A DNA stretch of 64,000 nt from Planctomycetota bacterium (GTDB taxonomy: Bacteria; Planctomycetota; GCA-002687715; CAIWVZ01). Location of the stretch: positions 1,920,001 to 1,984,000 of the forward strand of contig JBGANV010000001.1 in NCBI GenBank assembly GCA_044222185.1, written 5' to 3'. Under the pieces are notes generated by a model that worked only from the letters and a program-made list of their open reading frames with translations, did not search any database and was not told where the DNA came from. The position numbers were made by a program, and so were the translations under genes. Below are positions 3,052-47,803 of the stretch, one piece after another (the stretch's first letter is position 1; each line of letters begins with the position of its first letter).

Positions 3052-3137
3052 GGAGGGCTGGCAGAGTGGTCGAATGCGGCGGTTTTGAAAACCGTTGACC
3101 GAAAGGTCCGGGGGTTCGAATCCCTCGCCCTCCACCA
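3052..3137 (+). tRNA. tRNA-Ser (anticodon TGA), CCA encoded
   Basis: Acceptor stem GGAGGGC/GCCCTCC, anticodon arm GCGGT-TTTGAAA-ACCGT, long variable arm GACC-GAAA-GGTC, T-loop GTTCGAATC. Confidence 0.95.
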
Positions 3138-3197
3138 GTTTTCAGTGGGGCTCGTGCCTCGCCGGTCGGACCGGATCTCGAGTTCCTCTTCACCTTG

Positions 3198-3289
3198 GGA
3201 GAGGTGGCAGAGTGGTCGAATGCGGCGGTTTGCTAAACCGTTGTCCCGGGCCAAATCTGGGACCAGGGGTTCGAATCCCCTCCTCTCCG
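3198..3289 (+). tRNA. tRNA-Ser (anticodon GCT), CCA not encoded
   Basis: Acceptor stem GGAGAGG/CCTCTCC, G73, anticodon loop TTGCTAA, long variable arm, T-loop GTTCGAATC. Confidence 0.95.
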
Positions 3290-3304
3290 CTTGCGCGCCG
3301 GCGC

Positions 3305-5669: not shown

Positions 5670-8204
5670 ATGTTCGATCGTTTCACGGACCGGGCACGCA
5701 AGGTGATGGGGCTCGCTCGGCAAGAGGCCCAGCGACTCAATCACGAGTACATCGGGACAGAGCACATCCTCCTGGGTCTCGTCCAGGAAGGGAGCGGTGT
5801 CGCCGCCAACGTGCTCAAGAACCTCGACATCGATCTGAAGAAGATCCGTCAAGAGGTGGAGAAGCTGGTCAAGGCCGGCCCCTCCATGGTCACGATGGGT
5901 CAGCTTCCCTTCACGCCGAGGGCGAAGAAGGTCCTCGAGCTCGCGCTCGAGGAGGCGTCGAACCTCGGACACAACTACATCGGGACCGAGCACATCCTCC
6001 TGGGCCTCATCCGCGAGCGCGACGGAAAGGCCGCCAAGGTGCTCACGAACCTCAGCGTCAAGCTCGAGACGGTCCGCGAAGAGGTCCTGGACTTCCTCGG
6101 CGCCGACGTCTCCAATGCCGAGGCGGCGGAGAAGGAACAACCGGCCGCGCCTGCGACGCCGCCCGCTCCGGGCAATGGCAACACGCAAAACAGCAAGTCG
6201 AAGACGCCGGCTCTCGATTCGTTCGGTCGTGACCTCACGGAGTTCGCCCGCGAAGGCAAGCTCGATCCGGTGATCGGTCGCGCGAAGGAGATCGAGCGCG
6301 TCATCCAGATCCTGTGCCGGCGCACGAAGAACAACCCGGTGCTGCTCGGCGAGGCGGGCGTCGGCAAGACCGCGATCGTCGAAGGGCTCGCCCAGAGCAT
6401 CGTCCGCGGCGACGTGCCCGAGTTGCTGCTCGACAAGCGGATCGTCGTGCTCGACCTCGCCATGATGGTCGCTGGCACGAAGTACCGCGGACAGTTCGAA
6501 GAGCGCATCAAGGCTGTGATGACGGAGGTCCGTCGCGCACGCAACGTGATCCTCTTCATCGACGAATTGCACACGTTGGTCGGGGCCGGTGGCGCCGAAG
6601 GTGCCATCGACGCAAGCAACGTGCTGAAGCCCGCGCTGTCGCGTGGCGAGGTGCAGTGCATCGGCGCGACGACGCTGGACGAATACCGCAAGTACATCGA
6701 GAAGGACGGGGCCCTCGAGCGTCGCTTCCAGACGATCATCGTCGAGCCGCCGAGCAAGGAGGAGGCCGTCGAGATCCTCCGCGGGCTCCGCGACAAGTAC
6801 GAAGCCCACCACCGCGTCCGGTACACCGACGAGGCGCTCAGCGCCGCAGTCGAGTACTCGTCGCGGTACATCTCGGGGCGGTTCCTGCCGGACAAGGCGC
6901 TGGACGTCGTCGACGAAGCGGGCGCCCGCCTTCGTCTGCGCGCCATGACGCAGCCGTCCGAGATCAAGGAGCTCGAGGGCGAGATCGCCCGGCTCGACAA
7001 GGACAAGGAGGAGTCCGTCGCGGGTCAGGACTTCGAGCGCGCCGCCCAGCTGCGCGACCAGGCCTACCGTCTTCGCAAGAAGAAGGAGCAGATGGTCACG
7101 GAGTGGAAGGAGCGAAGCCGCAGCGAGGATGGAGTCGTCGATGCGGATGCCATCGCCGAAACCGTCTCGAAAATGACGGGCGTCCCGCTCACGCGGCTCG
7201 ACCAAGGCGAAGCGACCCGGTTGCTCAAGATGGAGGACGAGCTCAAGAAGGCCGTCGTCTCGCAGGACGAGGCCATCCACGCGATCGCGAAGGCCGTTCG
7301 CCGGTCGCGCTCGGGCATGAAGGATCCGCGCCGTCCCATCGGCTCGTTCATCTTCCTGGGCCCGACGGGCGTCGGAAAGACGCACCTCGCGAAGCAGCTC
7401 GCCAAGTTCATGTTCGGGAGCGAGGACGCGCTGATCCAGATCGACATGTCCGAGTACATGGAGAACTTCAACGCCTCGAAGCTCGTGGGGGCGCCCCCGG
7501 GCTACGTGGGCTACGAGGAGGGTGGCCAGCTCACCGAGAAGGTGCGTCGCCGCCCCTACAGCGTCGTCCTGCTCGACGAGATCGAAAAGGCACACGCCGA
7601 CATCTTCAACATGCTCCTCCAGATCATGGAGGAGGGCCGTCTCACCGACTCGTTCGGCCGGCAGATCGACTTCAAGAACACGGTCTTGATCATGACGTCG
7701 AACATCGGCGCCAACGTGATCAAGAGCCGTACGGGGCTGGGATTCCACACGACCGCCGAGGAAGCGTCCGGCAACAAGATGCGGGACCTCCTGAAGGGCG
7801 AGGTGGACCGGTTCTTCCGTCCCGAGTTCCTGAACCGTGTCGACGAGATGATCTTCTTCCGTCCGCTGGACCGCGAGGACCTGAAGCACATCGTGAGCAT
7901 CCAGCTCACCGACGTGCTGACGCGCATCGCGAAGAAGAACATCCACCTGAACATCACGGAGGAGGCGAAGGAGTTCCTGCTCGACAAGGGCTATTCGACC
8001 GAGTACGGCGCACGGCCCATGCGTCGTGCGATCGAGCGCTACGTCGAAGATCCGCTGTCCGAGGAGATCCTCCGCGGGAACATCAGCGAAGGCGCCACGC
8101 TCGACGTGCGCGTCGGGATGGATGCGCTCACGTTCCTCCCGGCGCCGGTGGCCGAGCCCAAGACGCCGCCGCCGCCCGTGGGTGCGACGCTCACGGGACC
8201 CTGA
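5670..8204 (+). CDS. clpC: ATP-dependent Clp protease ATP-binding subunit ClpC
   Basis: [11 protein letters not shown], two Clp-N repeats, Walker A motifs GEAGVGKT and [11 protein letters not shown] middle domain, LGF loop. Confidence 0.97.
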
Positions 8205-8241
8205 TCGCGCCAGCTGATCGGGCGCGCGAGAGTGCGACGAT

Positions 8242-8280
8242 GCGGGAGGCCGGGTTCACCCCGACCTCCCGTCTTCATTT
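8242..8280 (+). terminator. intrinsic terminator after clpC
   Basis: Hairpin GCGGGAGGcCGGG..CCCGaCCTCCCGT followed by CTTCATTT. Confidence 0.6.
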
Positions 8281-8535
8281 CCAGGCGCCCAGGTTGCGCT
8301 GATCTCATCCACCGCGCCGTTGCGAGCCGGGACCGACGTGCATCTATCGTCCAACGTTCGCACCGTCGTGACGATCCCTCTCTTCAGAACGACGCGGGGC
8401 GAAACCAACCTCGACGCGGCCTCGAAGCGCGCATAAACGACGGTGCCGGGCCATCGGTTCAAATCCGTGGCGCGCTGCGTCGCCATTCTCGCCAATCGAG
8501 ATTTCCCGGCCCGATCTGTGGTATCTGGGAGCACC

Positions 8536-9570
8536 ATGAAAGCGCTGTTGCTGATCCTCGTCTGCGCGCTGATCCTCTCTGCGTCGGCCATCACGATCAT
8601 CGACAAGTTCAAGGCGAAGCCGCCGGAACCGCAGTCGGCTTCGCGCATGCAGGCGGCCGCCGGCAAGACGGATCCAGCCCTGCTGGATCGCATGGACCGG
8701 ATCGAGAAGCTCCTCGCGGACGTCACGGAGATGCTCCAGATCCCGCCGATCGACCCGGCGACGGCGAGCCGCCCGACGGAGCCTGGTGAAGACCCGCGCC
8801 CGCTCCCCGTCGGACTCGGACAACGGTTGCAATACGTGGAGTCGGCGCTCGTCGACCTGCAGCGGCAGTCGAACCTCGACATCATGCAGCTGTACTCGAA
8901 GCTCAACAAACATCTGAACGAGTTCGAGGTCGAGCTGGCCGCGGTGACGTCGCGCCCGTCGAAACACGCCCCGTCCACGGACGACCTGAAGAAGCTCGGC
9001 GTCAACTACAACGCCGCCGAGAAGCGCATCGACATCGAGGCGATGTTCACCCAGCCTACGCGCACGCTCGAGTTCTTCGGCGTCGCGTCCGGCGGGAACG
9101 CCTACGAATCCATGCTGGTTCTGAACGTGACACCGAGCGCGTTGAAACGAGCGATCGCCTCCATGGAGGTGAAGGAGGCGGATGACCCGGACCCCCGCTC
9201 GCAGTTGCCGCCGCGTGGCGACGGCGTCTACGTCTACGTGACGTGGGAAGGACGCGCCAAACCGTGCCGCATCGAGGACCTTGTGATCGGAGCCTCGGGT
9301 GGCGGGAAGCTTCCGCACACGAAGTTCGTGTTCACGGCCAGCCGTGAGTTCGTCGATCGCGTGACGTGGGAGGACCACTTTGCCGCCGACGTTTACAAGA
9401 ACGTCGTCGCTCTCGCCTGGCGCTACGCCTCGGACTGCGTGCTCGCCTGCCCACTCATGGAGGCGCAATACGAGGATCGATGGGTCCCCGACATGGCGGC
9501 TGTCCCCGCGGCCGAGACGCACGCCACGCTGATCATCCTCCGCGAGCCGCGGAGCGACTGGGACACGTGA
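8536..9570 (+). CDS. Exported protein with coiled coil and YdjY-like C-terminal domain
   Basis: Signal or anchor MKALLLILVCALILSA; LEFFG...AYESMLVLNVTPS, GDGVYVYVTWEG and FVFTAS resemble the YdjY family. Confidence 0.6.
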   Translation: MKALLLILVCALILSASAITIIDKFKAKPPEPQSASRMQAAAGKTDPALLDRMDRIEKLLADVTEMLQIPPIDPATASRPTEPGEDPRPLPVGLGQRLQYVESALVDLQRQSNLDIMQLYSKLNKHLNEFEVELAAVTSRPSKHAPSTDDLKKLGVNYNAAEKRIDIEAMFTQPTRTLEFFGVASGGNAYESMLVLNVTPSALKRAIASMEVKEADDPDPRSQLPPRGDGVYVYVTWEGRAKPCRIEDLVIGASGGGKLPHTKFVFTASREFVDRVTWEDHFAADVYKNVVALAWRYASDCVLACPLMEAQYEDRWVPDMAAVPAAETHATLIILREPRSDWDT

Positions 9571-34622: not shown

Positions 34623-35528
34623 GTGCCGCGGAGCATGACAGGCTTCGGCGCGGCCGTTCGCGACGGGGCCGGGCGACGCGTGACGGTCGAAGCCAAGTCT
34701 GTCAACCATCGCTTCCTGAAGTCCCAGTTCCGGCTTCCGCTCGCCCTGCAATCGTTGGAGCCCGACCTCGAGACCGAGGTCCGGACACGGCTGACCCGCG
34801 GGGCGATCACCGTCAGCGTTCACGTGTCCGCGCTGCCAGGGGACACGGGTGCCGCGATCGACGAAGCCCGCGTCCGAGCGAACCACGACGCACTCCTTGC
34901 GATCTACCGGTCGCTCTACCCGGACGCGGCGCCGCCCGAGCCCATGCGGGTCATCGAGGCCGCCCTCCGCCAGCCCGGCGGCACCTCGGCCGCCGACGAG
35001 GCCGAATCGACGACCGACGAGCTACGGGACGTGGCGCGGCGGGCGACGGTCGAGGCCCTGGATGCCCTCACGCGGAGCCGCGATGCGGAGGGCGCGAAGA
35101 CGGCATCCGAACTCCGACTGCACGGTGCACGAGTCGCCACGTTGCGTGCGGCGATCGCCGAACGCTCCCCCCTCGTCACGCGGGAGAATCGGGACCGCTT
35201 CGCCACGCGCGTGAACGCCCTCTTATCCGAGGTGAGACCTGGACTTACGATCGACGACACGGTCTTGATGCGCGAGGCGGCGGCATTTGGAGAGCGGTGC
35301 GACGTCAGCGAGGAACTCCAGCGCCTCGCCGCACACCTGGATCTGTTCAACCGCCTCCTCGACGACGGCGCGGATGTGGGACGGCGTCTCGACTTCCTCC
35401 TGCAGGAGATGCTGCGCGAGGCGAACACGATCGGCTCCAAGGCGAGCGACCTGTCCATCGCCCACTCCGTGGTTGAGGCCAAGGCGGAAATCGACAAGAT
35501 GAAAGAACAGGTCCAGAATCTTGAGTAG
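34623..35528 (+). CDS. yicC: YicC/YloC family endoribonuclease
   Basis: SMTGFG, SVNHRF, GRRLDFLLQEMLREANTIGSK and EQVQNLE motifs. Confidence 0.94.
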   Translation: MPRSMTGFGAAVRDGAGRRVTVEAKSVNHRFLKSQFRLPLALQSLEPDLETEVRTRLTRGAITVSVHVSALPGDTGAAIDEARVRANHDALLAIYRSLYPDAAPPEPMRVIEAALRQPGGTSAADEAESTTDELRDVARRATVEALDALTRSRDAEGAKTASELRLHGARVATLRAAIAERSPLVTRENRDRFATRVNALLSEVRPGLTIDDTVLMREAAAFGERCDVSEELQRLAAHLDLFNRLLDDGADVGRRLDFLLQEMLREANTIGSKASDLSIAHSVVEAKAEIDKMKEQVQNLE

Positions 35529-36111
35529 GCTTCCCGTCCTCGTCCTCAGCGGCCCCAGCGGCGTCGGCAAGAGCTCCGTCATTGCGGAGCTGTTGCGGCA
35601 CGAGCGCTGCCGCCTCGCGGTGTCTGCCGCGACCCGCGCGCCGCGCCCGGGTGAGGTCGACGGGGTGCACTATCGGTTCATGACGCCATCCTCGTTCCAT
35701 GACCTCGTTTCCAGAAATGCCCTCCTCGAACACGCCGAAGTCCACGGTCACTGCTATGGCACGCCCGTGGAGGAGGTCGATCCCTGGGTCGCCAGCGGAT
35801 GGACCGTCCTCCTCGACATCGACGTCCAGGGATATCGAAGCGTCAAACGCCTGCGCCCCAGCACGGTCGGAGTCTTCATCAAGCCGCCGTCGTTCGAGTC
35901 CCTCCGGGATCGCCTGCAGCGCCGCAAGAGCGAGGATGCTGCGGCCATGGAACGGCGCCTCGACCACGCCCGCCGAGAGCTCGCCTTCGCTCACGAATAC
36001 GAACACGTCGTCATCAACGACGACCTTGCCCGCGCGGTTCACGAGATCGAAGCCATCGTCGGCATCGAAGCCCCGTCGGACCCGAACCGCCTGACCTCAA
36101 ACCGCAAGTAA
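35521..36111 (+). CDS. gmk: Guanylate kinase
   Basis: SGPSGVGKS, TRAPRPGEVDGVHY and IDVQG motifs. Confidence 0.95.
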   Translation: MSRLPVLVLSGPSGVGKSSVIAELLRHERCRLAVSAATRAPRPGEVDGVHYRFMTPSSFHDLVSRNALLEHAEVHGHCYGTPVEEVDPWVASGWTVLLDIDVQGYRSVKRLRPSTVGVFIKPPSFESLRDRLQRRKSEDAAAMERRLDHARRELAFAHEYEHVVINDDLARAVHEIEAIVGIEAPSDPNRLTSNRK

Positions 36112-36118
36112 CCGAGAC

Positions 36119-36451
36119 ATGATCCACCAACACAAGCTCGACGACCTCTACGGACAAGTCGGCGGCGTCTACAAGACGACCGTCCTGATCCAGAAGCGCC
36201 TGCGCGAGCTCAACCGAGGTGCCCGCCGGCTCGTCCATGAAGAGGACAAGAGCCCCATCGCCACCGTGATGCGCGAGATCGAGGGCAAGAAGCTCGACCT
36301 GCTGGCCGACACCGAGGAGAACCGCGAGCTCATCCGGACCGAGATCGAGCGGATGACGACGGATCAGCCGCGCGCCATCGACGTCGAGCCCACCACGAGC
36401 GAGGACGAACTCGAGCGCCGGATCCTGACGGCCCTGAACAAGACCCGCTGA
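36119..36451 (+). CDS. rpoZ: RNA polymerase omega subunit
   Basis: VGGVYKTTVLIQKRLRELNRG..PIATVMREI; gmk-rpoZ-coaBC synteny. Confidence 0.82.
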   Translation: MIHQHKLDDLYGQVGGVYKTTVLIQKRLRELNRGARRLVHEEDKSPIATVMREIEGKKLDLLADTEENRELIRTEIERMTTDQPRAIDVEPTTSEDELERRILTALNKTR

Positions 36452-36512
36452 GGCGCGGCCTGAAATCCGCCCCGGGTCGCGGCCGTCGCGCCCGAGGGCC
36501 GGGAGCGTCCCG

Positions 36513-37061
36513 ATGACCCGCCCCCACGTCCTGCTCGGCGTCACCGCCAGCATCGCCGCCCACCGGGCCCTGGACCTCACGTCCGAGCTCACGAAATCGG
36601 GCATGGACGTCAGCGTCGTGATGACGCGAAACGCCCAGGAATTCGTGCGACCGCTGGCCTTCGAAGCCCTTTCGCGCCGCCCCGTCCGGACCGATTTCTT
36701 CGGCCCGGATCGCGCGCCAGCCCATGAACACATCGACCTGGCCGCGACGGCGAACCTCTGCGTGATCGCCCCGGCGTCCGCGGACGTCATCGCCAAGCTG
36801 GCCCACGGCCTCTGCGACGACCTGCTGACGACCGTGACCTACGCGTATTCCGGCCCCCGCATCGTCTGTCCGGCCATGAACTGGCGCATGTGGCAGAACC
36901 CGCTGACGGCCAGGAATCTGGACACCCTGAAGGGGCTTGGCTTCGACGTCGTCGACCCCGATTCCGGCGACCTCGCCTGCGGCGAGCAGGGCCCGGGCCG
37001 CCTCGCGGCCCTGCCGAGGATTCTCGACCGCATCCGCCTGCACCTCGGGGTCGGCGGATGA
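36513..37061 (+). CDS. coaC: Phosphopantothenoylcysteine decarboxylase
   Basis: GVTASIAA, HIDLA, PASADVIAK, PAMNWRMW and LACGEQGPG motifs. Confidence 0.92.
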   Translation: MTRPHVLLGVTASIAAHRALDLTSELTKSGMDVSVVMTRNAQEFVRPLAFEALSRRPVRTDFFGPDRAPAHEHIDLAATANLCVIAPASADVIAKLAHGLCDDLLTTVTYAYSGPRIVCPAMNWRMWQNPLTARNLDTLKGLGFDVVDPDSGDLACGEQGPGRLAALPRILDRIRLHLGVGG

Positions 37062-37699
37062 ACCTGCTGGTCACCGCCGGGCCGACCCACGAACCCATCG
37101 ACGACGTCCGGTACGTGGGGAATTCGAGTAGCGGGCGACTGGGGTTCCTGATCGCCGAGGTTGCGCGCCACCGGGGTCACGCGGTGACGCTCGTCGCCGG
37201 TCCCTGTGCCCTGGCGGACCCGGCCGGGATCTCCGTGATCCGGGTGACGACGGCGACCGAAATGCTCGCGGCATGTCAGGCGGCGTTCCCGACGGCCGAC
37301 GCACTGGTGATGGCGGCAGCCGTCGCCGACTATCGACCGCGCGACCGCATCGTCGGGAAGATGAAGAAGGGGGCGGACGACCTCGTCCTGCACCTCGTCA
37401 AAAATCCGGACGTCGTCGCCGAACTCGGTAAGATGTCGCGCGGTCAGGTCATCGTGGGGTTTGCCCTCGAGGCCGCTCCGCCTGCGGAGGCGGAAGCGCT
37501 CGCGCGCGGCAAGCTTCGCAACAAGCATCTCGATCTCGTCGTGTTGAACCACCCTGGGTCGCTCGGTGGGTCGGATGCTGTCGGGGTGACTCTCATCACC
37601 GAGCGGGAGGCGGTCTCGCTCGGCAACGTCGACAAGCGTCGACTCGGGGAACGGCTCGTTCGCTTCGTCGAAACGCGCCAGCTCTCCGAGGGTCGTTGA
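37058..37699 (+). CDS. coaB: Phosphopantothenate-cysteine ligase
   Basis: LVTAGPTHEPIDDVRY, NSSSG, AAAVADY and VGFALE motifs; ATGA overlap with coaC. Confidence 0.92.
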   Translation: MNLLVTAGPTHEPIDDVRYVGNSSSGRLGFLIAEVARHRGHAVTLVAGPCALADPAGISVIRVTTATEMLAACQAAFPTADALVMAAAVADYRPRDRIVGKMKKGADDLVLHLVKNPDVVAELGKMSRGQVIVGFALEAAPPAEAEALARGKLRNKHLDLVVLNHPGSLGGSDAVGVTLITEREAVSLGNVDKRRLGERLVRFVETRQLSEGR

Positions 37700-37777
37700 A
37701 TGCGCTCACGCGGTTGAACGAGTGCGCAACGGGCACTTGCGGCGGCATCGTCCGTCAGTTCGAGATGGGGAGACGAA

Positions 37778-38272
37778 ATGGACCAGCCGGTCTCGACGGC
37801 AAGCTGGCAGATCCGGGTCGGCGTCCGCCGTGACCCGTCCGCTGCCGATCTCCCCTACCCTCGATACATGACCGACGGGGCAGCGGGCGCCGACGTCTTC
37901 GCGGCCGTCGAGTCACCGATCACGGTCCGCATGGGCGAGATCCACCGGATCCCCACGGGCCTCTTCCTCGAGATTCCAGAAGGGTTCGAAGCCCAGGTAC
38001 GAGCTCGATCGGGCCTCGCGCTCAAGAGCGGCATCGCGCTCGTGAACGCGCCGGGCACCATCGACTCCGACTATCGCGGCGAGTTGGGCGTGATCCTCAC
38101 GTGCCTCAGCAACACGCCCTGCGTGATCGAGCGCGGCATGCGGATCGCACAGCTCGTCTTCACGCGCGTCGCCCGCGCCGAGTTCATCGCTACGGACGCC
38201 ATCGGCACCACCGTTCGCGGCTCGGGGGGATTCGGACACACGGGCCTTGGTTCGGAAGCGAGTCGAAAGTGA
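37778..38272 (+). CDS. dut: dUTP diphosphatase
   Basis: AAGAD, RSGLA, GTIDSDYRGE, RIAQL and RGSGGFGHTG motifs. Confidence 0.96.
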   Translation: MDQPVSTASWQIRVGVRRDPSAADLPYPRYMTDGAAGADVFAAVESPITVRMGEIHRIPTGLFLEIPEGFEAQVRARSGLALKSGIALVNAPGTIDSDYRGELGVILTCLSNTPCVIERGMRIAQLVFTRVARAEFIATDAIGTTVRGSGGFGHTGLGSEASRK

Positions 38273-41088
38273 ACGAACGTGCAGTGACGACGCGTGCGAC
38301 GACACCCCCGATCTCCCGCATCGTGTGGGCGTGGGCGTTGGTTCTCCTCGCCATCTACGTGGCGATCAGTTTCACCACCTACGTCCCGCCCGGGCTGGGG
38401 AACGGTGAACCGCTGACGAACGTCGGAGGCCGGCTCGGTCAGCGACTGGGCCAGGCGCTCGTCGAAGGCTTCGGGGTCGGAGCGTTCGGGCTCCCCTTCT
38501 TCCTCGTGTTCCTCGGTTGGCGGCTGCGCACGCGCCCCCGCGTGACCGAGCCACTGCTCAAAGTGCTCGGCGTGTTCATGCTCATGCTCGCGTTCGGGCT
38601 CGTCATGACGCTCGCAGCGCCGGGCCGCGTCTTCCCGCGGGGTTACGTCCCGATCGGCGGGATTCTCGGCGACTGGCTCGGGACGAAACTGGTGCTGCAC
38701 TTCGGGAGGTGGTGGAGCGTGGCGATCGCCGGGCTCGGTGCCGGCGCGGCGCTGATCCTCTCGACCGACAGTTTCTTCCTCGAAGGCCTTGCGAGATGGT
38801 TGTCGCGCCACCCCACGCCGAAGACGGCGGAGGCCAAGGTCGCGGCCCGCAAACGGGCAGCGCGCGAGTTGGAGCGGACCGTGTCGCCGCTCGCGACGGA
38901 TGAAGAACCGGTCGAAGACGAGACCCCGATCGAAGCTCGCGACGCGGCAATGGCGGAAGGCGCAGCCGATGGCGCCTCATCGACGGAAGATGGGGCTGCA
39001 CCGCCGATCGAGGCCGCGCGGCCTCCGCGAGCCTCGCGCTCGAAGAAGGCCCCCGAGCGCCGGCTGCTCGAGACGCTGGCGAAGACCGAGTCGGCGGAGT
39101 CGGACACCTTCGACGTACCCAAGCCCAAGATCAAGGACGGGGTGGCGCCTGCAGTCGCCGCTGCGGCCGCCGCGCCGACGTTGTCGGAGGCCAGACCCAA
39201 GGCCGAGCAACGTGCCGAGGACGACGCCCCCGCCGGTGACGACGACGCGCCGGCGCCACGCGTACGACGGCCTCGCGCCTCGTCGCGCAAGAAGCCGGCC
39301 GATGCGCCCGTACCCGACCTCGGGCTCGACCTCGACGACGGCGACGATCACGAGGTCGATGCGCTCGACGGGTTCGACGACGTCGAAGCCGAGGGTGATG
39401 ACGAAGACGACGCCGAGGCCCCGGCCGCCGCGCCGGCCGCGCGCGCCAAGCCGCCAGTGCCGCCAAGCCAGGTGCGGATCCGCGACGGCGTCCCCGCGGG
39501 CAAACCGGGCGACGCCACGGGCGTGACGGTGATCAACCTCTCCCGCGACCCCAAGCTCAAGGGCAAGGAGAAGTACGAGCTGCCGCCGTTGACGCTGCTC
39601 AACGCCGCCGTCTACTCGGGAGAACGCGAGAGCGACGAGGCGCTCCAGGAGAAGGCCCGCCAGCTGGTCCAGGCGCTTCAGGACTTCGGTGTCCAGGCGA
39701 CGGTCGAGGAGATCGAGCGCGGTCCCGTCATCACGCGGTTCGACCTGAATCTCGCGCGCGGCACGAAGATCTCCCGGGTCACCGGGTTGGCCGAGGACCT
39801 CGGCATGACCCTCGGCGTGGGGCGAGTCCGCATCGCACAGGTGAAGGGGAAGGCCGCACTCGGAGTGGAGATCCCGAACCGTTCGCGCGAGACGGTGTTC
39901 CTGAAGGAACTGGCGCTCGCTGCCGCCACGGCCGCACCGAACAAGAAGATCGCGATCCCGCTGTTCCTCGGAAAGGACAGCGCCGGCAACCCGATCATCG
40001 AAGACCTGGCGTCGACGCCGCACCTCCTGATCGCCGGCCGCACCGGCGCGGGCAAGTCGGTGTTCGTCAACTCCCTCGTCCTGTCGATCCTGCTCACCCG
40101 CTACCCGGAAGAGGTGCGGCTGATCATGATCGATCCCAAGCGCGTCGAGCTCGAGGTCTACCAGGACATCCCACACCTCCTCACGCGCGTCGAAAGCGAC
40201 CCCAAGAAGTCGTCCCTGATCCTCCAATGGGCGATCCAGCAGATGGAGGAGCGATACGAGCTCCTCTCGGCCGTCGGCGTGCGCCACATCACGAGCTTCA
40301 ACAAGCTCGGCAAGGAAGCGCGCAAGGAGATGCTGAGCAAGCTCTACTCGGAGGGCGAGATCGAGAAGGTCCCGGAGACCATGCCCTACATCGTCATCAT
40401 CGTCGACGAGCTCGCCGACCTCATGATGACGTCCGGCAAGGAAACCGAGCAGGCGATCGCGCGTCTCGCCCAGAAGGCGCGAGCCGTCGGCATCCACGTC
40501 GTCCTCGCGACCCAGCGTCCGAGCACCGACGTCATCACGGGCCTCATCAAGAGCAACCTGCCGTCGCGCATCGCGTTCCAGACCCGCACGGGGATCGACT
40601 CGCGCACGATCCTCGACCGGCAGGGCGCCGAGAAGCTTCTCGACAAGGGCGACATGCTCTTCCTCGCGGCTTCCGCAGGTGACGATCTGCGCCGCATCCA
40701 GGGTCCCTTCGTCTCGGACGAGGAAGTGACGCGAGTCGTCGACTACCTGAAGACGAGTGCGCTGCCGCAGTACACGCACTCCCTCATCCAGGTCGGCGCG
40801 GGCGAGATGAAGGAGAGCGACGCGGGCGAGCAGGACGAGCTGTTCGAACAAGCCGTCGAGATCGTCCTCCAGAGCAAGCAGGCCAGCACGTCGTGGCTGC
40901 AACGTCAGTTGAGCGTTGGTTACGCGCGCGCCGGACGCCTCGTCGACCTGATGACGCAGGCCGGATACATCTCGGGTCCGAACGGCAGCAAGCCGCGCGA
41001 GATCCTGATCACGATCGACCAGTGGAATGAACTGAAGGGGAAGACGGCCGCAGCGTCGGCTTCCGAAGGATCGGAAGGTGCGAGGTGA
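38269..41088 (+). CDS. ftsK: DNA translocase FtsK
   Basis: 4TM N-domain, acidic linker, PHLLIAGRTGAGKS, IDPK, IIVDELAD, ATQRPS and GAEKLL motifs; gamma domain STSWLQRQLSVGYARAGR. Confidence 0.95.
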   Translation: MNERAVTTRATTPPISRIVWAWALVLLAIYVAISFTTYVPPGLGNGEPLTNVGGRLGQRLGQALVEGFGVGAFGLPFFLVFLGWRLRTRPRVTEPLLKVLGVFMLMLAFGLVMTLAAPGRVFPRGYVPIGGILGDWLGTKLVLHFGRWWSVAIAGLGAGAALILSTDSFFLEGLARWLSRHPTPKTAEAKVAARKRAARELERTVSPLATDEEPVEDETPIEARDAAMAEGAADGASSTEDGAAPPIEAARPPRASRSKKAPERRLLETLAKTESAESDTFDVPKPKIKDGVAPAVAAAAAAPTLSEARPKAEQRAEDDAPAGDDDAPAPRVRRPRASSRKKPADAPVPDLGLDLDDGDDHEVDALDGFDDVEAEGDDEDDAEAPAAAPAARAKPPVPPSQVRIRDGVPAGKPGDATGVTVINLSRDPKLKGKEKYELPPLTLLNAAVYSGERESDEALQEKARQLVQALQDFGVQATVEEIERGPVITRFDLNLARGTKISRVTGLAEDLGMTLGVGRVRIAQVKGKAALGVEIPNRSRETVFLKELALAAATAAPNKKIAIPLFLGKDSAGNPIIEDLASTPHLLIAGRTGAGKSVFVNSLVLSILLTRYPEEVRLIMIDPKRVELEVYQDIPHLLTRVESDPKKSSLILQWAIQQMEERYELLSAVGVRHITSFNKLGKEARKEMLSKLYSEGEIEKVPETMPYIVIIVDELADLMMTSGKETEQAIARLAQKARAVGIHVVLATQRPSTDVITGLIKSNLPSRIAFQTRTGIDSRTILDRQGAEKLLDKGDMLFLAASAGDDLRRIQGPFVSDEEVTRVVDYLKTSALPQYTHSLIQVGAGEMKESDAGEQDELFEQAVEIVLQSKQASTSWLQRQLSVGYARAGRLVDLMTQAGYISGPNGSKPREILITIDQWNELKGKTAAASASEGSEGAR

Positions 41089-43403
41089 CGACGATGATCG
41101 AGAACTCCCATCAGAACAGCTACCCGTCCGCGGTCCGCCTCGGCGTGCCGCTCCTCGTCTTCTTCGGAACGGTGTTCCTCATCGTCGCCGCCGTGAAGTT
41201 CCACGTCGTCGGCGCGATCCACAGTGACTTCGTGCTCGCGCGGCCCATGGGGATGCCCGTGACGTGCGCGTTGCTCGGCGTCGCCGCGTTCGTCGCAGCC
41301 CGGTGGTTCTTCGGCAAACCCACACAGGCGCTCTCGAAGAAGCTTCTCGCGACGCTCGTCGTCCTGCTGCCGCTCATGGGCCTCTTCGGCGTGATCGAGG
41401 GCGCGGCCAGCGACGCGGCGAAGCCGCTCGGCGGCACGCTCGGAGGTCTTCTCGCGCGGGCGTTCCTCGGAATGGGGCCGATGCTGGCGGGAGCGGTCTT
41501 CGCGCTCCTCGCGCTCTTCGGCGCGTTTCTCGCGCAGCGGATCCTCGTGCAGGCGCCGACTCTCGCCATCGATCCCTACACCCTTCTGCGCCGGGCGCAG
41601 GTCAAGAGCCCGGCGTCGACGGCTGCAGCGGCGCCGACGCACACCGGTGACGAAGGGATCTCGGAGGTCCGTACGGTTCCCGGCGGCGGCGAGCTGTTCT
41701 CCGAGGCGACGGAACTGGCGGCACCGCCGGAAGATCTCGTCACGGAAGCGGGCGACGTCGCCGTCGCAGAAGCGGACGTCGAATCGGACGCGGGCGAGAT
41801 GGAAGCCGTCGAGCCTTTCCACGTCCCGGACGACGAGCCACCTCCGCCGCCGCGGCGGATCCCGATCCTCGCCGGAGTCGTCGACGAGCCGAGCGACGAT
41901 CTCGTCGAAGAGGATGAAGAGATCGAGCCCCCGGCTCGGCGGCCGACGTCGGCCGACCTGTTCTCGTCCGTGATCGCGCACGAGGCCACGGAGGTTGCCG
42001 CCCAGTCGATCACGCTGGACGACGACGAAGACCTGGAGACGGTCGACGCGCCGGCGGCTTCCACGGAAGAGGAGGCCCACGCGGATGCGTCGGAACCCTT
42101 TCGCGCCGAGATTCCGATTGCACGCGAACTGACCGCAGAGCAAGCCGAGGCCACCAAGCCGATCGAACTCGCCGAGCTCATCGAGGCGGCGTCCGCTCCG
42201 TCGGAGGGCACCGTCGCAGTCCACCAGCCGGACCTCTTCGGAGCAGGCATCTGGTCGACGCCGACCGTGGCCGCCGACCCCCACGACGACGAGCCCCTCG
42301 GAACCGCGGTCGTCGAAACCACCGCGTCCGGCGCCGACGATTCGTCCGTCGCGGTGGCGACGAGCACGGCCGGTGCCGTCCTCGACTCCGCGCCGACGTT
42401 CCAGCCCGGCGCGGCGCACGGCGATCCGGAAGACGCGGTCGAGGAGATCGACGAGACGCCATCCGACGTCTGGTCCGAGTCGGAGCCAGAGCCCGAGTTC
42501 GTCGAGGTCGACCACGACGAGGCGCTCGTCGCAGAGTTGCTCGCCGACGACGAGCCGGCGACCGACGTCGCGGCGAACTCTGCCGTGGAGGACGAGCCGA
42601 CCGAACAGTCCGCCGCCCGCGAGCCCGTGATCACGGCCGGCCACGCCGAGGCGGAGACGACCGTGTCGCCGACGGCTGCCGTCGACGCGCCGGCGCCGGC
42701 CGAAGACCTGTCGCCCGTGATGTCCGAAGGCGTCGCGATCGAGCCGGAGTCGTCGACGGCCGCGGCAGCGTCCTCGGAGGCGTCCGACCCGGGGCCGGAC
42801 ACCGCACCGAAGGCGGCCCGCCGCTCCCAGCCCCGCAAGCGCCGCGCGCACGTCGCCGACGAGGACACGACGCCACTGTTCGCCGAGCCGGAACTGCCCC
42901 CCGAGCCCGTGCAGGATGCGGAGCCGGCGGGGGGTGACGCCGCCCTCGCGCCCCAGCTCGTCGACGGCCCGGCAAGCACCGCGGCAGCTCCACCCCGTAC
43001 GACGCGCAAGCGCCGGACGGAGACGGACGAGTGGGCGCAGTGGGACGAGGGCCGAGCGAAGCCCGCCAAGCGTGCGGCGAAAGCGCCCGCGCCCTCGCCG
43101 ATCGAAACGCCCGCCAGCGCGGCCTCGACGGAGGCCGCCCGCCACCGAGCCGGTGAGCGCCCGCTCTTCGAAGGCGCCGACGACCCCAACCCCGATCTCC
43201 TGCAGCGGGCGATCGCCCTCGTCATCGAGGAGGATCGCTGCTCGGTCTCCATGCTCCAGCGGTCCCTCGGCGTCACGTTCGGCGAAGCCACGTCGCTGAT
43301 CGACCGGATGTTCCAGCAGGGCGTCGTCGGGCCCTACCAACCCACCGGCCGGCGCGAGGTTCTCGCGCGCAAGACGCCGCAGGAACAGACAGCCGAATCC
43401 TGA
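41085..43403 (+). CDS. Motor-less FtsK-like protein: TM domain, long acidic linker, C-terminal FtsK-gamma winged helix
   Basis: GTGA overlap with ftsK; about 4 TM helices; E/D/A/P-rich middle; C-terminal DLLQRAIALV..SVSMLQRSL..LIDRM..GVVGP..RREVL; no Walker A. Confidence 0.8.
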   Translation: MTTMIENSHQNSYPSAVRLGVPLLVFFGTVFLIVAAVKFHVVGAIHSDFVLARPMGMPVTCALLGVAAFVAARWFFGKPTQALSKKLLATLVVLLPLMGLFGVIEGAASDAAKPLGGTLGGLLARAFLGMGPMLAGAVFALLALFGAFLAQRILVQAPTLAIDPYTLLRRAQVKSPASTAAAAPTHTGDEGISEVRTVPGGGELFSEATELAAPPEDLVTEAGDVAVAEADVESDAGEMEAVEPFHVPDDEPPPPPRRIPILAGVVDEPSDDLVEEDEEIEPPARRPTSADLFSSVIAHEATEVAAQSITLDDDEDLETVDAPAASTEEEAHADASEPFRAEIPIARELTAEQAEATKPIELAELIEAASAPSEGTVAVHQPDLFGAGIWSTPTVAADPHDDEPLGTAVVETTASGADDSSVAVATSTAGAVLDSAPTFQPGAAHGDPEDAVEEIDETPSDVWSESEPEPEFVEVDHDEALVAELLADDEPATDVAANSAVEDEPTEQSAAREPVITAGHAEAETTVSPTAAVDAPAPAEDLSPVMSEGVAIEPESSTAAAASSEASDPGPDTAPKAARRSQPRKRRAHVADEDTTPLFAEPELPPEPVQDAEPAGGDAALAPQLVDGPASTAAAPPRTTRKRRTETDEWAQWDEGRAKPAKRAAKAPAPSPIETPASAASTEAARHRAGERPLFEGADDPNPDLLQRAIALVIEEDRCSVSMLQRSLGVTFGEATSLIDRMFQQGVVGPYQPTGRREVLARKTPQEQTAES

Positions 43404-43485
43404 ACGCGGACGCTCGTCCGGTCCGACACGGGCGCAGGTCGATGATCTGCGCCCGCCGCCGTTTCGCGGGTCGCGGGCCCCGGTT

Positions 43486-44919
43486 ATGTTCCCGCTTCAA
43501 CTCTGCGAAGCCCTCGCGAGCTCAGCCGAACCAAACGTGACCCCGCGCCGCATCGTCTCCCTCGTCTCGCTCGGATGCCCGAAGAACCTCGTGGACAGCG
43601 AGGGTCTGGTCTCGGCGCTCCTGTCGAACGACTTCCGCCTGGTGACGGATCCGAAGGACTCGGAGGTCGTCATCGTGAACACCTGCGGCTTCCTCGACGC
43701 CTCGCGTCAGGAGTCTCTGGCGCAGATTCGCGACGTGTGCCAGCTGAAGAAGACCAACCAGGTGCGCGGCGTCCTCGTCGCCGGGTGCATGGTGGGCAAC
43801 TACCGGGAGCTGCTCGCGACGGAGGCGCCGGACGTCGACGGACTCGTCGGGTTCGGAGACTATCCGCGCATCGCCCAGATCGTGGAAGGCCTGCTGCCGC
43901 GTTCGGAGGCACCCACGTTCACGATCGAGCGCCGACGCGTCGAGGCGTCTCTCACGCCGAGGCACTACGCCTACCTGAAGATCTCCGAGGGCTGTAATCA
44001 CGTCTGCACCTTCTGCGTGATCCCGAGCATCCGTGGCCCCATGCGATCGCTGCCGATCGAGGACCTCGTGGGCCGCGCGCGGGCCCAGGCGGAGCGAGGG
44101 GTCCGCGAGCTGAACCTCATCGCGCAGGATTCGACGGTCTACGGGGGCGACATCTACGGTGAGGTGCGGCTCGAACGCCTCATTTCCCGGCTCGCGCAGA
44201 TCGACGGAATCGCGTGGATCCGCCTCATGTACGCGTACCCGACGGAAGTGCGGGACGCCCTGATCGACCTCCTCGGGAGCGGAGGGGCGGTCCTCCCCTA
44301 CCTCGACGTGCCCATCCAGCATGCGGCCACCGGCGTCCTCGCCCGCATGAAGCGAGGCTACGATCGTCGCACGCTCGATCGGATGGTCGACAAACTCCGA
44401 GCCAGGGGCGTCGCGATTCGCACGACCGTCATCGTGGGATTCCCGGGCGAGACTGCCGCGGACTTCGAGGAACTCCTGCAATTCCTGCGGGACGCGCGCT
44501 TCGATCGGCTGGGCGCATTCCGTTATTCCCGCGAGGAAGGGAGCGCCGCCGCCGACCTCGACGGCCAGGTGCCCGAGCCGGAGAAAGACGAGCGCTGGAA
44601 CCGTCTGATGGCGCTTCAGCAGGAGATCGCGTTCGCGAACGCCCGAGCCCGGATCGGTACCGTCGAGGACGTCCTGATCGACGTCCCCGCGGCCGATGGA
44701 CGACCGGCACGCGGCCGTACCCGCTGGGACGCCCCCGAGGTCGACGCGTCGGTCTTCGTCGAAGGCGACGGCCTCGCGGCCGGAAACATCGTCCCCGTGC
44801 ACGTGGCCGAAGCGCGGGGCTATGATCTCGCCGGACGCGCCAACCCCACCTCCGCGCTTCGAGGAGGCGATGCAGGTGGAACGAGCGAACGGATCCGCCG
44901 CGCACGACCAGGAAGCTGA
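43486..44919 (+). CDS. rimO: Ribosomal protein S12 methylthiotransferase (start may be GTG 43537)
   Basis: SLGCPKNLVDSE, NTCGF, KISEGCNHVCTFC radical-SAM motif, DAPEVD TRAM domain. Confidence 0.95.
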   Translation: MFPLQLCEALASSAEPNVTPRRIVSLVSLGCPKNLVDSEGLVSALLSNDFRLVTDPKDSEVVIVNTCGFLDASRQESLAQIRDVCQLKKTNQVRGVLVAGCMVGNYRELLATEAPDVDGLVGFGDYPRIAQIVEGLLPRSEAPTFTIERRRVEASLTPRHYAYLKISEGCNHVCTFCVIPSIRGPMRSLPIEDLVGRARAQAERGVRELNLIAQDSTVYGGDIYGEVRLERLISRLAQIDGIAWIRLMYAYPTEVRDALIDLLGSGGAVLPYLDVPIQHAATGVLARMKRGYDRRTLDRMVDKLRARGVAIRTTVIVGFPGETAADFEELLQFLRDARFDRLGAFRYSREEGSAAADLDGQVPEPEKDERWNRLMALQQEIAFANARARIGTVEDVLIDVPAADGRPARGRTRWDAPEVDASVFVEGDGLAAGNIVPVHVAEARGYDLAGRANPTSALRGGDAGGTSERIRRARPGS

Positions 44920-45516
44920 TTGAACACGAACTGGTTCAACCTCCCCAACCGCATCACGCTCGCAAGGCTCCTTGCAAGCATCGTGCTCTTCGCGATCCTC
45001 GTTCAGCTCAACCGCCGCGGCACTGCGTCCTCGAGCCTGGCGCTCTGGGCCCTCATCCTCTTCATCCTCGTCGCCGCCACGGACTGGCTCGACGGGTATC
45101 TCGCACGAAGCCTGGGCCAGGTGACCGCTCTCGGCCGAATCCTCGACCCGTTCGTCGACAAGGTCACCGTCTGCGGGTCGTTCATCCTTCTGGGCGACGT
45201 CGCGCCGATCGATCACCTGCTCCAAGCGTGGATGATCGTCGTGATCGTCGGGCGGGAGTTCTTCGTGAACGACATCCGCGGATACATGGAATCGCGCGGG
45301 GTCTCGTTCGGTGCGGCGGCTCCGGGCAAGATCAAGATGCTCGTCCAATGCATCACCGTGGGCTTCCTCATCGGCCGCGTGGCGTTCGGGAACCTGCTCG
45401 GGATCCTGGACCAGGTGAACATCGGCCTCTTGTGGGCGACGCTCTTCGCGACCGTCGCGTCCGGCGTCTATTACCTCGGCAAGGGTGCAGCACTCCTGCG
45501 CGCGGCCGAGTCCTGA
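44920..45516 (+). CDS. pgsA: CDP-diacylglycerol-glycerol-3-phosphate 3-phosphatidyltransferase
   Basis: NLPNRITLAR and DWLDGYLAR...GRILDPFVDK CDP-alcohol phosphotransferase motif. Confidence 0.93.
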   Translation: MNTNWFNLPNRITLARLLASIVLFAILVQLNRRGTASSSLALWALILFILVAATDWLDGYLARSLGQVTALGRILDPFVDKVTVCGSFILLGDVAPIDHLLQAWMIVVIVGREFFVNDIRGYMESRGVSFGAAAPGKIKMLVQCITVGFLIGRVAFGNLLGILDQVNIGLLWATLFATVASGVYYLGKGAALLRAAES

Positions 45517-45523
45517 GCCGCTG

Positions 45524-45979
45524 GTGATCGCCCGCGCGCTCGCGACGTTCGGCGGTGTCGGACGCTTCCCCAGGGCGCCGGGAACGGCGGCGAGCGTCGT
45601 CGCGGCCGCCGTCCTCCTCGTCCCAGTGAGCCCGGGCGTCTACCCGTGGGCGGTCGGAATCGCCGCCGTCGTCTCCTTCGTTGCCTGCGTGATCGTCGCC
45701 CGCGTTCTCTTCCGCGGCGCCGTCCGGGAGGAGGACCCGGGGTGGTTCGTCCTGGACGAAGCCTGCGGCGTGTGGATCGCCGCGTGGCGGCCCGCCGGGA
45801 TCAGCCCCTGGTCCCTCCTCCTCGCGACGGCCCTGTTCCGCCTCTTCGACATCTGGAAACCGTTCCCGATCCGCCAGCTCCAAGACCTGCCGTACGGGTT
45901 GGGGATCGTCGTCGACGACGCCGTCGCCGGCCTTTTTGCCCTGGGGATCAGCCTTTGCGTCGAGCGATGGCTCGTCTAA
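45524..45979 (+). CDS. pgpA: Phosphatidylglycerophosphatase A
   Basis: APGT, DPGWFVLDE, FRLFDIWKPFPI and GIVVDDAVAG motifs. Confidence 0.92.
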   Translation: MIARALATFGGVGRFPRAPGTAASVVAAAVLLVPVSPGVYPWAVGIAAVVSFVACVIVARVLFRGAVREEDPGWFVLDEACGVWIAAWRPAGISPWSLLLATALFRLFDIWKPFPIRQLQDLPYGLGIVVDDAVAGLFALGISLCVERWLV

Positions 45980-46072
45980 AACGGGCCACTCGCCGGTGAG
46001 GAGGGTCACGGACCGACCCGCCGTCGGCGCGCAACAGGGCCGGCACGACGCCCGCTCGCCTCGACGATCGAC

Positions 46073-47803
46073 ATGGCGGATCCGCGAAAGACAGGCCCGT
46101 TGGGCACCGCTCTCGAGCGCGAAATGTCCGACATTCGCGTTCGGCGGAAGGTCCAGTTCGGCCTGGCCCCGAAGTTCACGCTTCCCGTGGTCAGCGTGAT
46201 CACCCTGGTGGTGATCCTGTTCGGAGTGGTCGTTTACGGCCACATGGCGAGGGCCCTCGACGACGAGCTGGACCGGACGGGCACGTTCGCCGCCGCACTC
46301 GCCGCGTCGCCCGAGCTCGACTCGTGGGAGGGGAACTACAACACGGTCGCGAACCTCCGTCGCCGTCTCGCGACGATCGAATCGGACCTTCAACTCGCGA
46401 GCGGGAACCTCACGGTCGACCCCAAGACGACTTCCTCCGACGCCGAGAAGGACATCCTGAAGAAGCTCCAGGAGTTCGACGACCAGCAGCGTCGGTTCAA
46501 CCAGGATCGCCTGAACAGCCTGCGCGAGACACAAGGTGCGCTCGACGTCCTCATCACCGGGCAAGGGTCCACGCTGATCGCCAGCGCCTCCGGAATCAGC
46601 GAAGCCCGGTTCCAGCCGACGACGACCCGCACGGAAGCCGGAACGAGGGTCGAGTCGGGCCGTTTCACGCGAGCGAAGGAAGACCCGATCCGCGCCCGCG
46701 CGTTCTCCCACCCGATCCTGAACCTGCGGCGCCAGCGAGTTGGGACGGCCACGGTGATCTTCTCCGAGGAGTCGCTCGCGGCACAGCTCGACGAGCTCCG
46801 CCGATCGATCCTGCTGTTCTGCGGCGTCGCCATATTCGGCTGCGCCGCAGTGGCGTTCCTCACGAGCCGCATCATCACGCGGCCCCTGACGTTCCTCGTC
46901 AAGGACATCGAAGAGGTCGCCTCTGGGAACCTCCAGCACAAGACGCTGATTCGCAGCAGCGACGAACTCGGAGTCCTCGCGTCCAGCTTCGACGGGATGA
47001 CGCGCAATCTGGCTGCAGCCGAGCGGATGCGGCAGGATTTGCGACAGAAGGACCACGAGGTCCGCGTCGCCCACGAGATCCAGGAGCGACTGTTCCGCGC
47101 CGAGCTCCCGAGCCCGAAGGGACTGCGCCTCGATGCTCGAAACCTTCTGGCGGGGGAACTCTCGGCCGACTTGTTCGACGCCGTCGAGTTGGAGGACGGC
47201 CGCGTCGCCGCGCTCGTGATGACGGCATCGGGCCGGGGAATCCCCGGAGCCATCGTGCTGTCCATGGCTCGATCGCTCGGACACGCGATCTTCCAGCAGA
47301 CGTCCGACCCGGCCCAGTTCCTCATGCGCCTGAATGCACTGCTTACCCCGGATCTGAAGCGAGGGCTGTTCGTGTCGGCGATGGTCGCCGTCATCCACCC
47401 CCAGTCCGGCAAGGTGACGCTCGCGTCCGCAGGTCACCGCGTGCCCGCGCTCCACTTCGTCTCGCAGAAGTCCGGCCTCGCACGCATCCAACCGGACGGC
47501 ATAGCGCTCGGTCTCGACCGCGGTCCCGTCTTCGATCGCTCCCTCGTTTGCGCGTCGCTCACGCTGGCGCCCCACGATGCATTGATCCTCGCCACCGACG
47601 GAGTCTGCGCCATCAAGGCGGACGACGGCTCGGAGATCGGCGAGACCGGCTTCATGAAGGCCGCGCTCGCGGCCGCCCGCGCCGGAACGGAAGATCTTCC
47701 ATCGCGGATCGTCGACACCCTCGTCGATCGCAGTGGCGGTCAGCCGCGCGAGCAGGACATCGCCGTGATCTGTGCCGTCCACGAATCGCAAGACACGCCA
47801 TGA
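46073..47803 (+). CDS. Membrane sensor with HAMP and SpoIIE/PP2C domain, degenerate active site
   Basis: 2 TM helices, HAMP (SDELGVLASSFDGM), SAGH and TDG motifs; motif 2 reads MTASG and motif 11 reads QD. Confidence 0.8.
   Translation: MADPRKTGPLGTALEREMSDIRVRRKVQFGLAPKFTLPVVSVITLVVILFGVVVYGHMARALDDELDRTGTFAAALAASPELDSWEGNYNTVANLRRRLATIESDLQLASGNLTVDPKTTSSDAEKDILKKLQEFDDQQRRFNQDRLNSLRETQGALDVLITGQGSTLIASASGISEARFQPTTTRTEAGTRVESGRFTRAKEDPIRARAFSHPILNLRRQRVGTATVIFSEESLAAQLDELRRSILLFCGVAIFGCAAVAFLTSRIITRPLTFLVKDIEEVASGNLQHKTLIRSSDELGVLASSFDGMTRNLAAAERMRQDLRQKDHEVRVAHEIQERLFRAELPSPKGLRLDARNLLAGELSADLFDAVELEDGRVAALVMTASGRGIPGAIVLSMARSLGHAIFQQTSDPAQFLMRLNALLTPDLKRGLFVSAMVAVIHPQSGKVTLASAGHRVPALHFVSQKSGLARIQPDGIALGLDRGPVFDRSLVCASLTLAPHDALILATDGVCAIKADDGSEIGETGFMKAALAAARAGTEDLPSRIVDTLVDRSGGQPREQDIAVICAVHESQDTP

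Follow-up and report, generated by a model that had tools for sequence, protein, structure and literature searches.

The 64,000-nt stretch of Planctomycetota DNA analysed here (positions 1,920,001 to 1,984,000 of contig JBGANV010000001.1; hereafter the window) carries, on the same strand as a full-length ftsK and just downstream of it, a gene for an FtsK paralogue that lacks the motor, and we refer to this gene and its protein as X. X is vertically conserved and occupies this place behind ftsK in a large subset of Planctomycetota. It combines an N-terminal membrane domain related to FtsK_4TM, a long acidic linker and a C-terminal FtsK gamma winged helix, and is thus an FtsK-family protein of conserved, previously undescribed architecture; in the literature that we searched, no account of an FtsK paralogue lacking the motor was found. 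An earlier note, made from the letters of the window, had proposed such a protein, with an FtsK-like transmembrane (TM) region, more than 500 residues of acidic low-complexity linker, a gamma domain at its C-terminus and neither a RecA-fold motor nor Walker motifs, and had named three circumstances at odds with the proposal, namely a C-terminus that is not gamma, a decaying strain-specific duplicate, and a motor hidden by mis-assembly. Every part of the proposed architecture was borne out by the results described below, and none of the three circumstances was encountered.

The motor was sought at several levels. X gave no match to FtsK_SpoIIIE or FtsK_alpha in Pfam and contains no Walker A motif, while a tblastn comparison of the motor of the upstream FtsK with the X DNA in all frames detected no remnant (best E 4.1). 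FtsK_SpoIIIE was absent from all of the positional orthologues of X (0/16). A custom hidden Markov model (HMM) of the FtsK motor, which in a control matched 23 of 23 FtsKs and 0 of 23 X proteins, matched none of the best 150 cluster representatives of the family (0/150). X therefore has neither the RecA-fold alpha/beta motor nor the Walker A/B motifs of a translocase, and it cannot translocate DNA.

In an AlphaFold2 model of X built on 150 family members, the N-terminal membrane domain consists of helices at residues 12-39, 49-73, 80-104, 114-127 and 129-152. The Foldseek and VIA rows for the model all fell on the gamma domain; the evidence on homology of the membrane domain comes from sequence profiles. 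Pfam FtsK_4TM reached 14.3 bits on residues 41-146, under its cut-off of 23.1, and the Pfam outcome anticipated in the earlier note was hence obtained in part: FtsK_gamma lay above its cut-off without FtsK_SpoIIIE, but FtsK_4TM was only sub-threshold. Alignment by hhalign of the N-termini of X and its close relatives with planctomycete FtsK N-termini gave 93.9% (E 1.6e-7) and was in register across all helices and across the GG..G motif; the motifs quoted in that note are real. For the more distant positional orthologues, comparison with FtsK gave 99.3% (E 4e-20) and comparison with the window's group 97.7%. FtsK_4TM exceeded the Pfam cut-off in 2 of the 16 positional orthologues (48.9 and 32.4 bits) and was found below it in 4 more, and a profile of 15 X N-termini (profile A3) matched the N-terminus of the genome's own FtsK with an E of 7.1e-13. 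Hydrophobic composition inflates the scores of membrane proteins; given that the four tests agree nevertheless, homology of the X membrane domain with the FtsK N-terminus is the sensible reading, with hhalign, the orthologues and the family profile assigning X to FtsK_4TM where Pfam alone stays sub-threshold.

At the other end of the protein, Pfam FtsK_gamma scored 62.3 bits on residues 704-761 (cut-off 30.6), which places X in the gamma family, and phmmer matched the X C-terminus to PDB entries 2ve8/2j5o with an E of 1.1e-7. The domain was modelled with a predicted local distance difference test score (pLDDT) of 94-97. The fold agrees with the sequence: the Foldseek top 10 were all FtsK gamma (TM 0.74-0.89), and VIA placed 2ve8_A first (Z 11.3, rmsd 2.3 A, 67 residues), followed by the XerD-gamma fusion 5dcf (Z 8.9). 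The X gamma is 33% identical to the gamma of the adjoining FtsK, and net charge of the gamma domain fails to separate X from FtsK.

Conservation was evident from gene order. The order coaBC-dut-ftsK-X-rimO-pgsA-(pgpA)-HAMP/SpoIIE phosphatase was found in 7 loci of the window's class, and the same coaBC-to-phosphatase order with X recurred in 10 further Planctomycetota families, with a spacing from ftsK to X of −8 to 171 nt in 12 loci. FtsK_gamma was present in all 16 positional X orthologues, 15 of them above the Pfam cut-off. At least one gamma match was obtained in 283 of 301 Planctomycetota genomes and at least two in 78 of 301 (hand count of the table); within the window's class, at least two occurred in 12 of the 14 genomes that are at least 90% complete, the two exceptions being fragmented assemblies. 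Among 15 two-gamma genomes representing 15 families, the second gamma lay 1.8-3 kb downstream of the ftsK gamma and on the same strand in 10, in 2 X immediately precedes rimO and ftsK is on a different contig, and the remaining 3 showed different arrangements. In the one-gamma genomes G053 and G213, rimO directly follows ftsK, and no X-like open reading frame (ORF) was found after ftsK in five other genomes. Given that the ftsK-rimO neighbourhood exists with or without X, X represents an insertion into, or a loss from, a conserved neighbourhood.

Profile searches extended this picture. An N-terminal profile HMM search retrieved 895, 256 and 10 clusters at E <= 1e-3, 1e-10 and 1e-30, respectively, the weakest of the 895 probably including true FtsKs. 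A custom gamma HMM matched 126 of the best 150 cluster representatives, and the 24 without gamma are 123-600 residues long (22 of them under 470) and may be fragments. Word-based searches returned 4 and 16 relatives, which carry PF09397 alone in 4/4 and 15/16 cases and PF01580 in none, and which are named, where a name is given, 'hypothetical protein' and once 'FtsK/SpoIIIE-like'. Atlas clusters, likewise 'hypothetical protein' with FtsK_gamma, are commonest in Planctomycetota, and NCBIfam holds no model for X. Among 14 named loci of one X subfamily, 11 are labelled Planctomycetota and 3 have no phylum label; X was found in no phylum besides Planctomycetota, with other phyla not searched systematically. 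A single-protein N-terminal search found X in only 9 of 41 relatives, its sensitivity being too low (0/9 in family f2 though the gene is present there), and profile A3 matched 144 of 301 genomes of the phylum at E <= 1e-8 but mixes X with FtsK N-termini and is no count of X. A single-protein search for related loci with X returned only the ordinary full-length FtsK of a gammaproteobacterial metagenome-assembled genome (MAG), and a locus search with the FtsK motor brought up 80 FtsKs spread over many phyla, which told nothing of use on taxonomy.

The history of the family was approached through gamma trees, which rest on 59 columns. A quick tree placed X on one side of a branch with an SH-like approximate likelihood ratio test (SH-aLRT) support of only 75. 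In a careful tree built without the long-branch rows X_L027, X_L024 and X_L028, X needs two changes, and a single clade was not rejected by the approximately unbiased test (p-AU 0.41). On these alignments, a single origin of X is neither shown nor excluded. In the quick tree, the FtsK gammas of the window's class grouped with those of other phyla and not with other planctomycete FtsKs (SH-aLRT 95, again on 59 columns and hence weak).

These data also bear on the possibility that X is a tandem copy of ftsK in decay, or that an artefact of assembly hides a motor. One locus fits such a reading: in genome G009 (locus L013, 6962-8690, minus strand), X is split into two overlapping ORFs, an N-terminal one at 7221-8690 and a gamma one at 6962-7789. 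This split is a frameshift or an assembly error in the low-complexity linker of a MAG. In the window, the X frame is intact. GC content was 0.77-0.92 at third and 0.45-0.68 at second codon positions (GC3 and GC2) along the entire frame, the low-complexity middle included, as in ftsK and rimO, indicating one coding frame throughout and neither two genes nor a hidden motor. Many families conserve the domains at both ends of X, 256 clusters were retrieved at E <= 1e-10, and no motor remnant exists in any frame. X is thus conserved rather than strain-specific, as the earlier note had supposed, and decay or artefact is contradicted by the intact frame, the conservation and the missing remnant, making it extremely improbable.

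The linker between the two end domains has a net charge of −87 over 540 residues. Linkers were net-negative in all 126 family members with gamma (126/126; median −0.17 per residue), while the FtsK linkers of the same genomes are shorter (34-250 residues) and range from −0.42 to +0.12 per residue (median −0.06, 17/21 negative). Linker sequence is variable across the family apart from short clade-specific motifs, two of which are present in the window's X: P-x-R-x-P-x-L-x-G-x-V, and a basic run followed by DWAQWDE, whose form in the window's clade is a basic run plus DWA(S/Q)W(D/E)E. Of the 23 family members examined, 11 carry the pattern [DEN]WxxW, every one of them from the window's clade; among the 126 cluster representatives, 11 carry it, and another X subfamily has linker motifs of its own. 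Such motifs in an otherwise variable linker, together with a membrane domain that is the best conserved part of X, suit a division-site scaffold in which both would bring in envelope or division proteins, a role that the N-terminus and linker have in E. coli FtsK, with gamma secondary or only docking on FtsK. However, a dispensable gamma is hard to reconcile with its presence in 126 of the best 150 representatives, where 22 of the 24 lacking it are shorter than 470 residues and may be fragments, or with its retention in all 16 positional orthologues, which argues that gamma is under selection. We regard a scaffold as unlikely.

To see what the X gamma could do, we compared its residues in 23 planctomycete FtsK rows and 23 X rows, with E. 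coli numbering mapped through alignment to 2j5p. The recognition helix reads GYxRxxR in 22 of the 23 FtsKs, the remaining one having K for the last R. In the window's X it reads TFGEATS (longer, T-F-G-E-A-T-S-L-I-D-R-M-F), corresponding to R1297 to E, R1300 to S, E1303 to D and E1306 to F. Joint substitution of R1300, E1303 and E1306 is reported to make E. coli FtsK blind to FtsK-orienting polar sequences (KOPS) (PMC2680272), and the window's X does not have the residues of a KOPS reader. Neither recognition-helix Arg is present in 12 of the 13 window-clade rows (clade support 99/95 in the gamma tree). Both basic residues are kept in 3 of the 23 X rows (L021, L025 and L029) and the second alone in 3 more (L022, L024 and L028); since they persist in distant rows, the loss is a trait of the window's clade and not of the whole family. 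In E. coli the XerD-contact positions are Q1288, R1289, R1292, I1293, G1294 and N1296 (PMC5052618, Table 1), of which Q1288/R1289 are linked through hydrogen bonding as well as a salt bridge to XerD E184, and altering R1289 affected recombination more than altering any other FtsK residue (PMC5052618). The window's X retains the Gln-Arg pair, which stands in 18 of the 23 X rows. At the other positions, I1293 is conservatively replaced by V, and R1292 to G, G1294 to T and N1296 to G are changes.

Because in the window's clade the DNA-reading Arg residues are lost while Gln-Arg is kept, we read the X gamma there as a protein-binding module. X would then be a membrane-tethered accessory or regulatory subunit of FtsK whose gamma binds a protein partner, a Xer recombinase or FtsK, rather than reading DNA, a view to which we give about an even chance. 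The capture of DNA that the earlier note had envisaged becomes less likely in the window's clade, where Glu and Ser replace the Arg pair kept by 22 of 23 FtsKs, although some distant members keep the residues. It would nonetheless underlie a passive chromosome tether, in which the X gamma binds DNA, specifically or not, and holds a region such as the terminus at the membrane where division or budding takes place, replacing FtsZ-linked anchoring of Ter. A bona fide gamma winged helix, one or both basic recognition-helix residues in 6 of 23 family members and a wing Arg-Arg conserved in the window's clade all speak for a tether. Set against them are the loss of both recognition-helix Arg in 12 of 13 window-clade rows and a linker whose net charge of −87 would repel DNA. 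In addition, a single gamma binds KOPS weakly in known systems, where one KOPS is read by three gammas (PMC3384302), and a hexamerising motor is absent from X. We therefore consider a tether improbable, though not negligible.

Several observations weigh against the protein-binding view that we prefer. The wing of the window's X keeps its Arg-Arg (GRREVL) and could still touch DNA. Given the distant members that keep one or both basic residues of the recognition helix, DNA binding may be the ancestral function of the X gamma and could persist. R1292 and N1296, both contacts in E. coli, are Gly in X. The genome encodes two XerC/D-type recombinases, both above the cut-off of NF001399 (PRK00283, tyrosine recombinase subfamily) and just under the XerC and XerD equivalog cut-offs, and the XerD residues that touch gamma are conserved in neither: E183/E184/Y187 correspond to E/P/D in one and S/H/A in the other, and E119/Q123/I127 to K/E/T and G/S/G. 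Moreover, the presence of X does not track Xer copy number, since 21 of 25 relatives carry two Xers, among them G023, where one gamma was matched and no X was seen behind ftsK. The kept Gln-Arg pair is the only tie of X to Xer, and any partner of the X gamma is a putative one. The one complex prediction, of the X gamma (residues 690-769) with the C-terminal domain (residues 98-291) of the more XerD-like recombinase, scored 0.01 against a mark of 0.32, which speaks neither for nor against binding. The earlier proposal that X regulates FtsK/XerCD found no support as written and stays an inference. Finally, a scan for promoters and terminators in the window gave no signal above chance, leaving spacing as the basis for co-transcription of ftsK and X.

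Within the same framework, a mechanism can be outlined. X would reside next to FtsK in the cytoplasmic membrane, probably translated from the ftsK transcript and possibly co-assembling with FtsK via the related membrane domains. By homology of topology with FtsK, its linker and gamma would be cytoplasmic, and the gamma would be presented on a flexible, DNA-repelling tether of several hundred residues to engage a Xer recombinase or the FtsK motor, with a part in late, FtsK-dependent segregation of the chromosome in a phylum that lacks FtsZ. In E. coli, isolated gamma activates XerCD-dif recombination without the translocase (PMC3130261); a gamma on a tether could hence switch on Xer or the FtsK motor, or hold them back by serving as a decoy. 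A more specific form, in which planctomycetes divide the tasks of FtsK between two proteins, FtsK pumping DNA and X supplying a tethered gamma in trans that by itself controls Xer recombination or the loading of FtsK where the cell divides or buds, its acidic tether acting as a DNA-mimicking or nucleoid-excluding spacer, appears rather doubtful. The decoy form, with the X gamma competing with the FtsK gamma for XerD or the FtsK motor and thereby delaying recombination or translocation until FtsK has loaded correctly, agrees with the retention of Gln-Arg and the loss of DNA-reading residues, and free gamma yields topologically harmful products in E. coli (PMC3130261), so that control of gamma activity matters. 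It has no direct evidence of its own, however, and amounts to a sub-case of the protein-binding reading with the opposite sign; we judge it very unlikely.

Compared with known systems, X resembles the FtsK/SpoIIIE translocases of E. coli and P. aeruginosa and the adjoining FtsK in its four-helix N-terminal membrane domain, long linker and C-terminal gamma, but lacks the alpha/beta RecA motor, the Walker motifs and the hexamerisation module. Its linker is longer and uniformly acidic, and in the window's clade its recognition-helix Arg are replaced. SftA of Bacillus subtilis is likewise a second, truncated FtsK-family protein alongside a full-length translocase; it kept the motor and lost the membrane domain, the opposite of X. 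Actinomycetota FtsK_4TM-only proteins (Atlas clusters at 0.77-0.79, below the reliable level and leads only) share with X a membrane domain without a motor, but unlike X have no gamma. RodZ, to which the earlier note had compared X by its genomic neighbourhood, is also a membrane protein with a cytoplasmic helix-turn-helix (HTH)-type domain. The analogy found no support: what marks RodZ is an XRE-type HTH at the N-terminus, one TM helix and RodZ_C, X matches none of these in Pfam, and RodZ_C was not found in this genome. XafT of TLC phage is not known to be a gamma homologue. It illustrates that stand-alone Xer activators exist (PMC6744903, PMC9226527), and an isolated gamma-type module without a translocase can activate XerCD-dif as well (PMC3130261). 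Both differ from X, which is a natural chromosomal gene, membrane-anchored in its product and linked to ftsK.

X speaks to how FtsZ-less Planctomycetota divide and hand over their chromosome. The host appears to be of this kind, as had been supposed: ftsZ (TIGR00065) was not found in its 93.8%-complete genome, the control matching in 13 of 14 genomes. A conserved, pared-down ftsK copy directly behind ftsK in many lineages is an obvious candidate for an FtsK partner and offers a concrete protein for localisation, deletion and Xer, FtsK or DNA binding work. It also shows that the FtsK gamma and membrane domains can stay under selection without the motor, which bears on what each does alone. If the gamma-in-trans reading is true, X would be one of only a handful of lineage-specific parts in the machinery for division and segregation without FtsZ. 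In P. limnophila, ftsK is reported as the only essential gene of the division and cell wall (dcw) cluster (PMC12283558, PMC10632474, PMC12673574, PMC6952346). This species is reported to have one FtsK homologue only (PMC6952346), and genetics of X therefore needs another host.

The coordinates of X, its parts and its neighbours are listed in Table 1. The ORF given in the earlier note, 41085..43403 with 772 residues from GTG 41085, is present in the ORF listing, but ATG 41094 is the likelier start because the database gene call P0001 is identical to X read from there, the N-termini of four homologues align with the residue at this ATG, and a Shine-Dalgarno-like GAGGTG lies upstream. With the ftsK stop at 41086-41088, the GTGA overlap with ftsK described in that note holds for one possible start, whereas the likelier one leaves a gap of 5 nt; the two genes are tightly packed whichever start holds, and the coupling of X to ftsK stands. 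The placement of X between ftsK and rimO-pgsA-pgpA agrees with the Pfam matches of the neighbours, and a HAMP/SpoIIE phosphatase gene lies beyond pgpA.

Table 1. Positions in the window of X, its domains and motifs, and the flanking genes.
Feature	Position	Strand	Evidence or remark
X, motor-less FtsK paralogue, 769 aa	41094..43403	+	ORF; P0001; coding-type GC3/GC2 along the frame
Shine-Dalgarno-like GAGGTG	41082..41087	+	6 nt before ATG 41094; overlaps ftsK end; putative, from reading of the sequence
N-terminal membrane domain, divergent FtsK_4TM, aa 12-152	41127..41549	+	AlphaFold2 pLDDT 81-97; hhalign; family profile
Acidic disordered linker, aa 155-693	41556..43172	+	pLDDT below 50, no secondary structure (AlphaFold2)
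Linker motif P-x-R-x-P-x-L-x-G-x-V, aa 253-263	41850..41882	+	Invariant columns in alignment of 5 close homologues
Basic run then DWAQWDE, clade-specific, aa 638-653	43005..43052	+	[DEN]WxxW motif distribution
FtsK-gamma winged helix, aa 697-760	43182..43373	+	Pfam; phmmer vs PDB; AlphaFold2; Foldseek; VIA
ftsK, full length	38101..41088	+	Pfam FtsK_4TM 55 bits, FtsK_alpha 92.6, FtsK_SpoIIIE 204, FtsK_gamma 94.2; NCBIfam PRK10263 E 2.5e-131; counted from first GTG
rimO, downstream neighbour	43486..44919	+	UPF0004 + Radical_SAM + TRAM_2
pgsA	44920-45516	+	CDP-OH_P_transf
pgpA	45485-45979	+	PgpA

Some minor observations concern these genes and genomes. Read from its first GTG, the ftsK ORF overlaps dut (37778-38272), and its FtsK_4TM match starts only at residue 73; because of the overlap, the true ftsK start probably lies 50-70 codons further downstream (window 38101-38320). 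The pgsA and pgpA ORFs share 32 nt as listed, and the pgpA start may be further downstream. The larger block gmk-rpoZ-coaBC-dut-ftsK-(X)-rimO-pgsA-pgpA-HAMP/SpoIIE phosphatase (window 35521-47803) is conserved partly or fully in many Planctomycetota families, with or without X. Three genomes of family f12 (G030, G117 and G191; 8.7-9.5 Mb, 83-86% complete by marker count, two of them single-contig) gave zero FtsK_gamma matches, and their FtsK may be without a recognisable gamma domain. The one named record from the window's class (locus L020, genome G009) carries the NCBI label 'uncultured Isosphaeraceae'; yet the class as sampled comprises only 14 good genomes in four families, several of 2.4-3 Mb, and the label may not reflect its real placement. 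Two adjacent tRNA-Ser genes (anticodons TGA and GCT) at window positions 3052-3290 are the sole Rfam/ARAGORN matches in the window.

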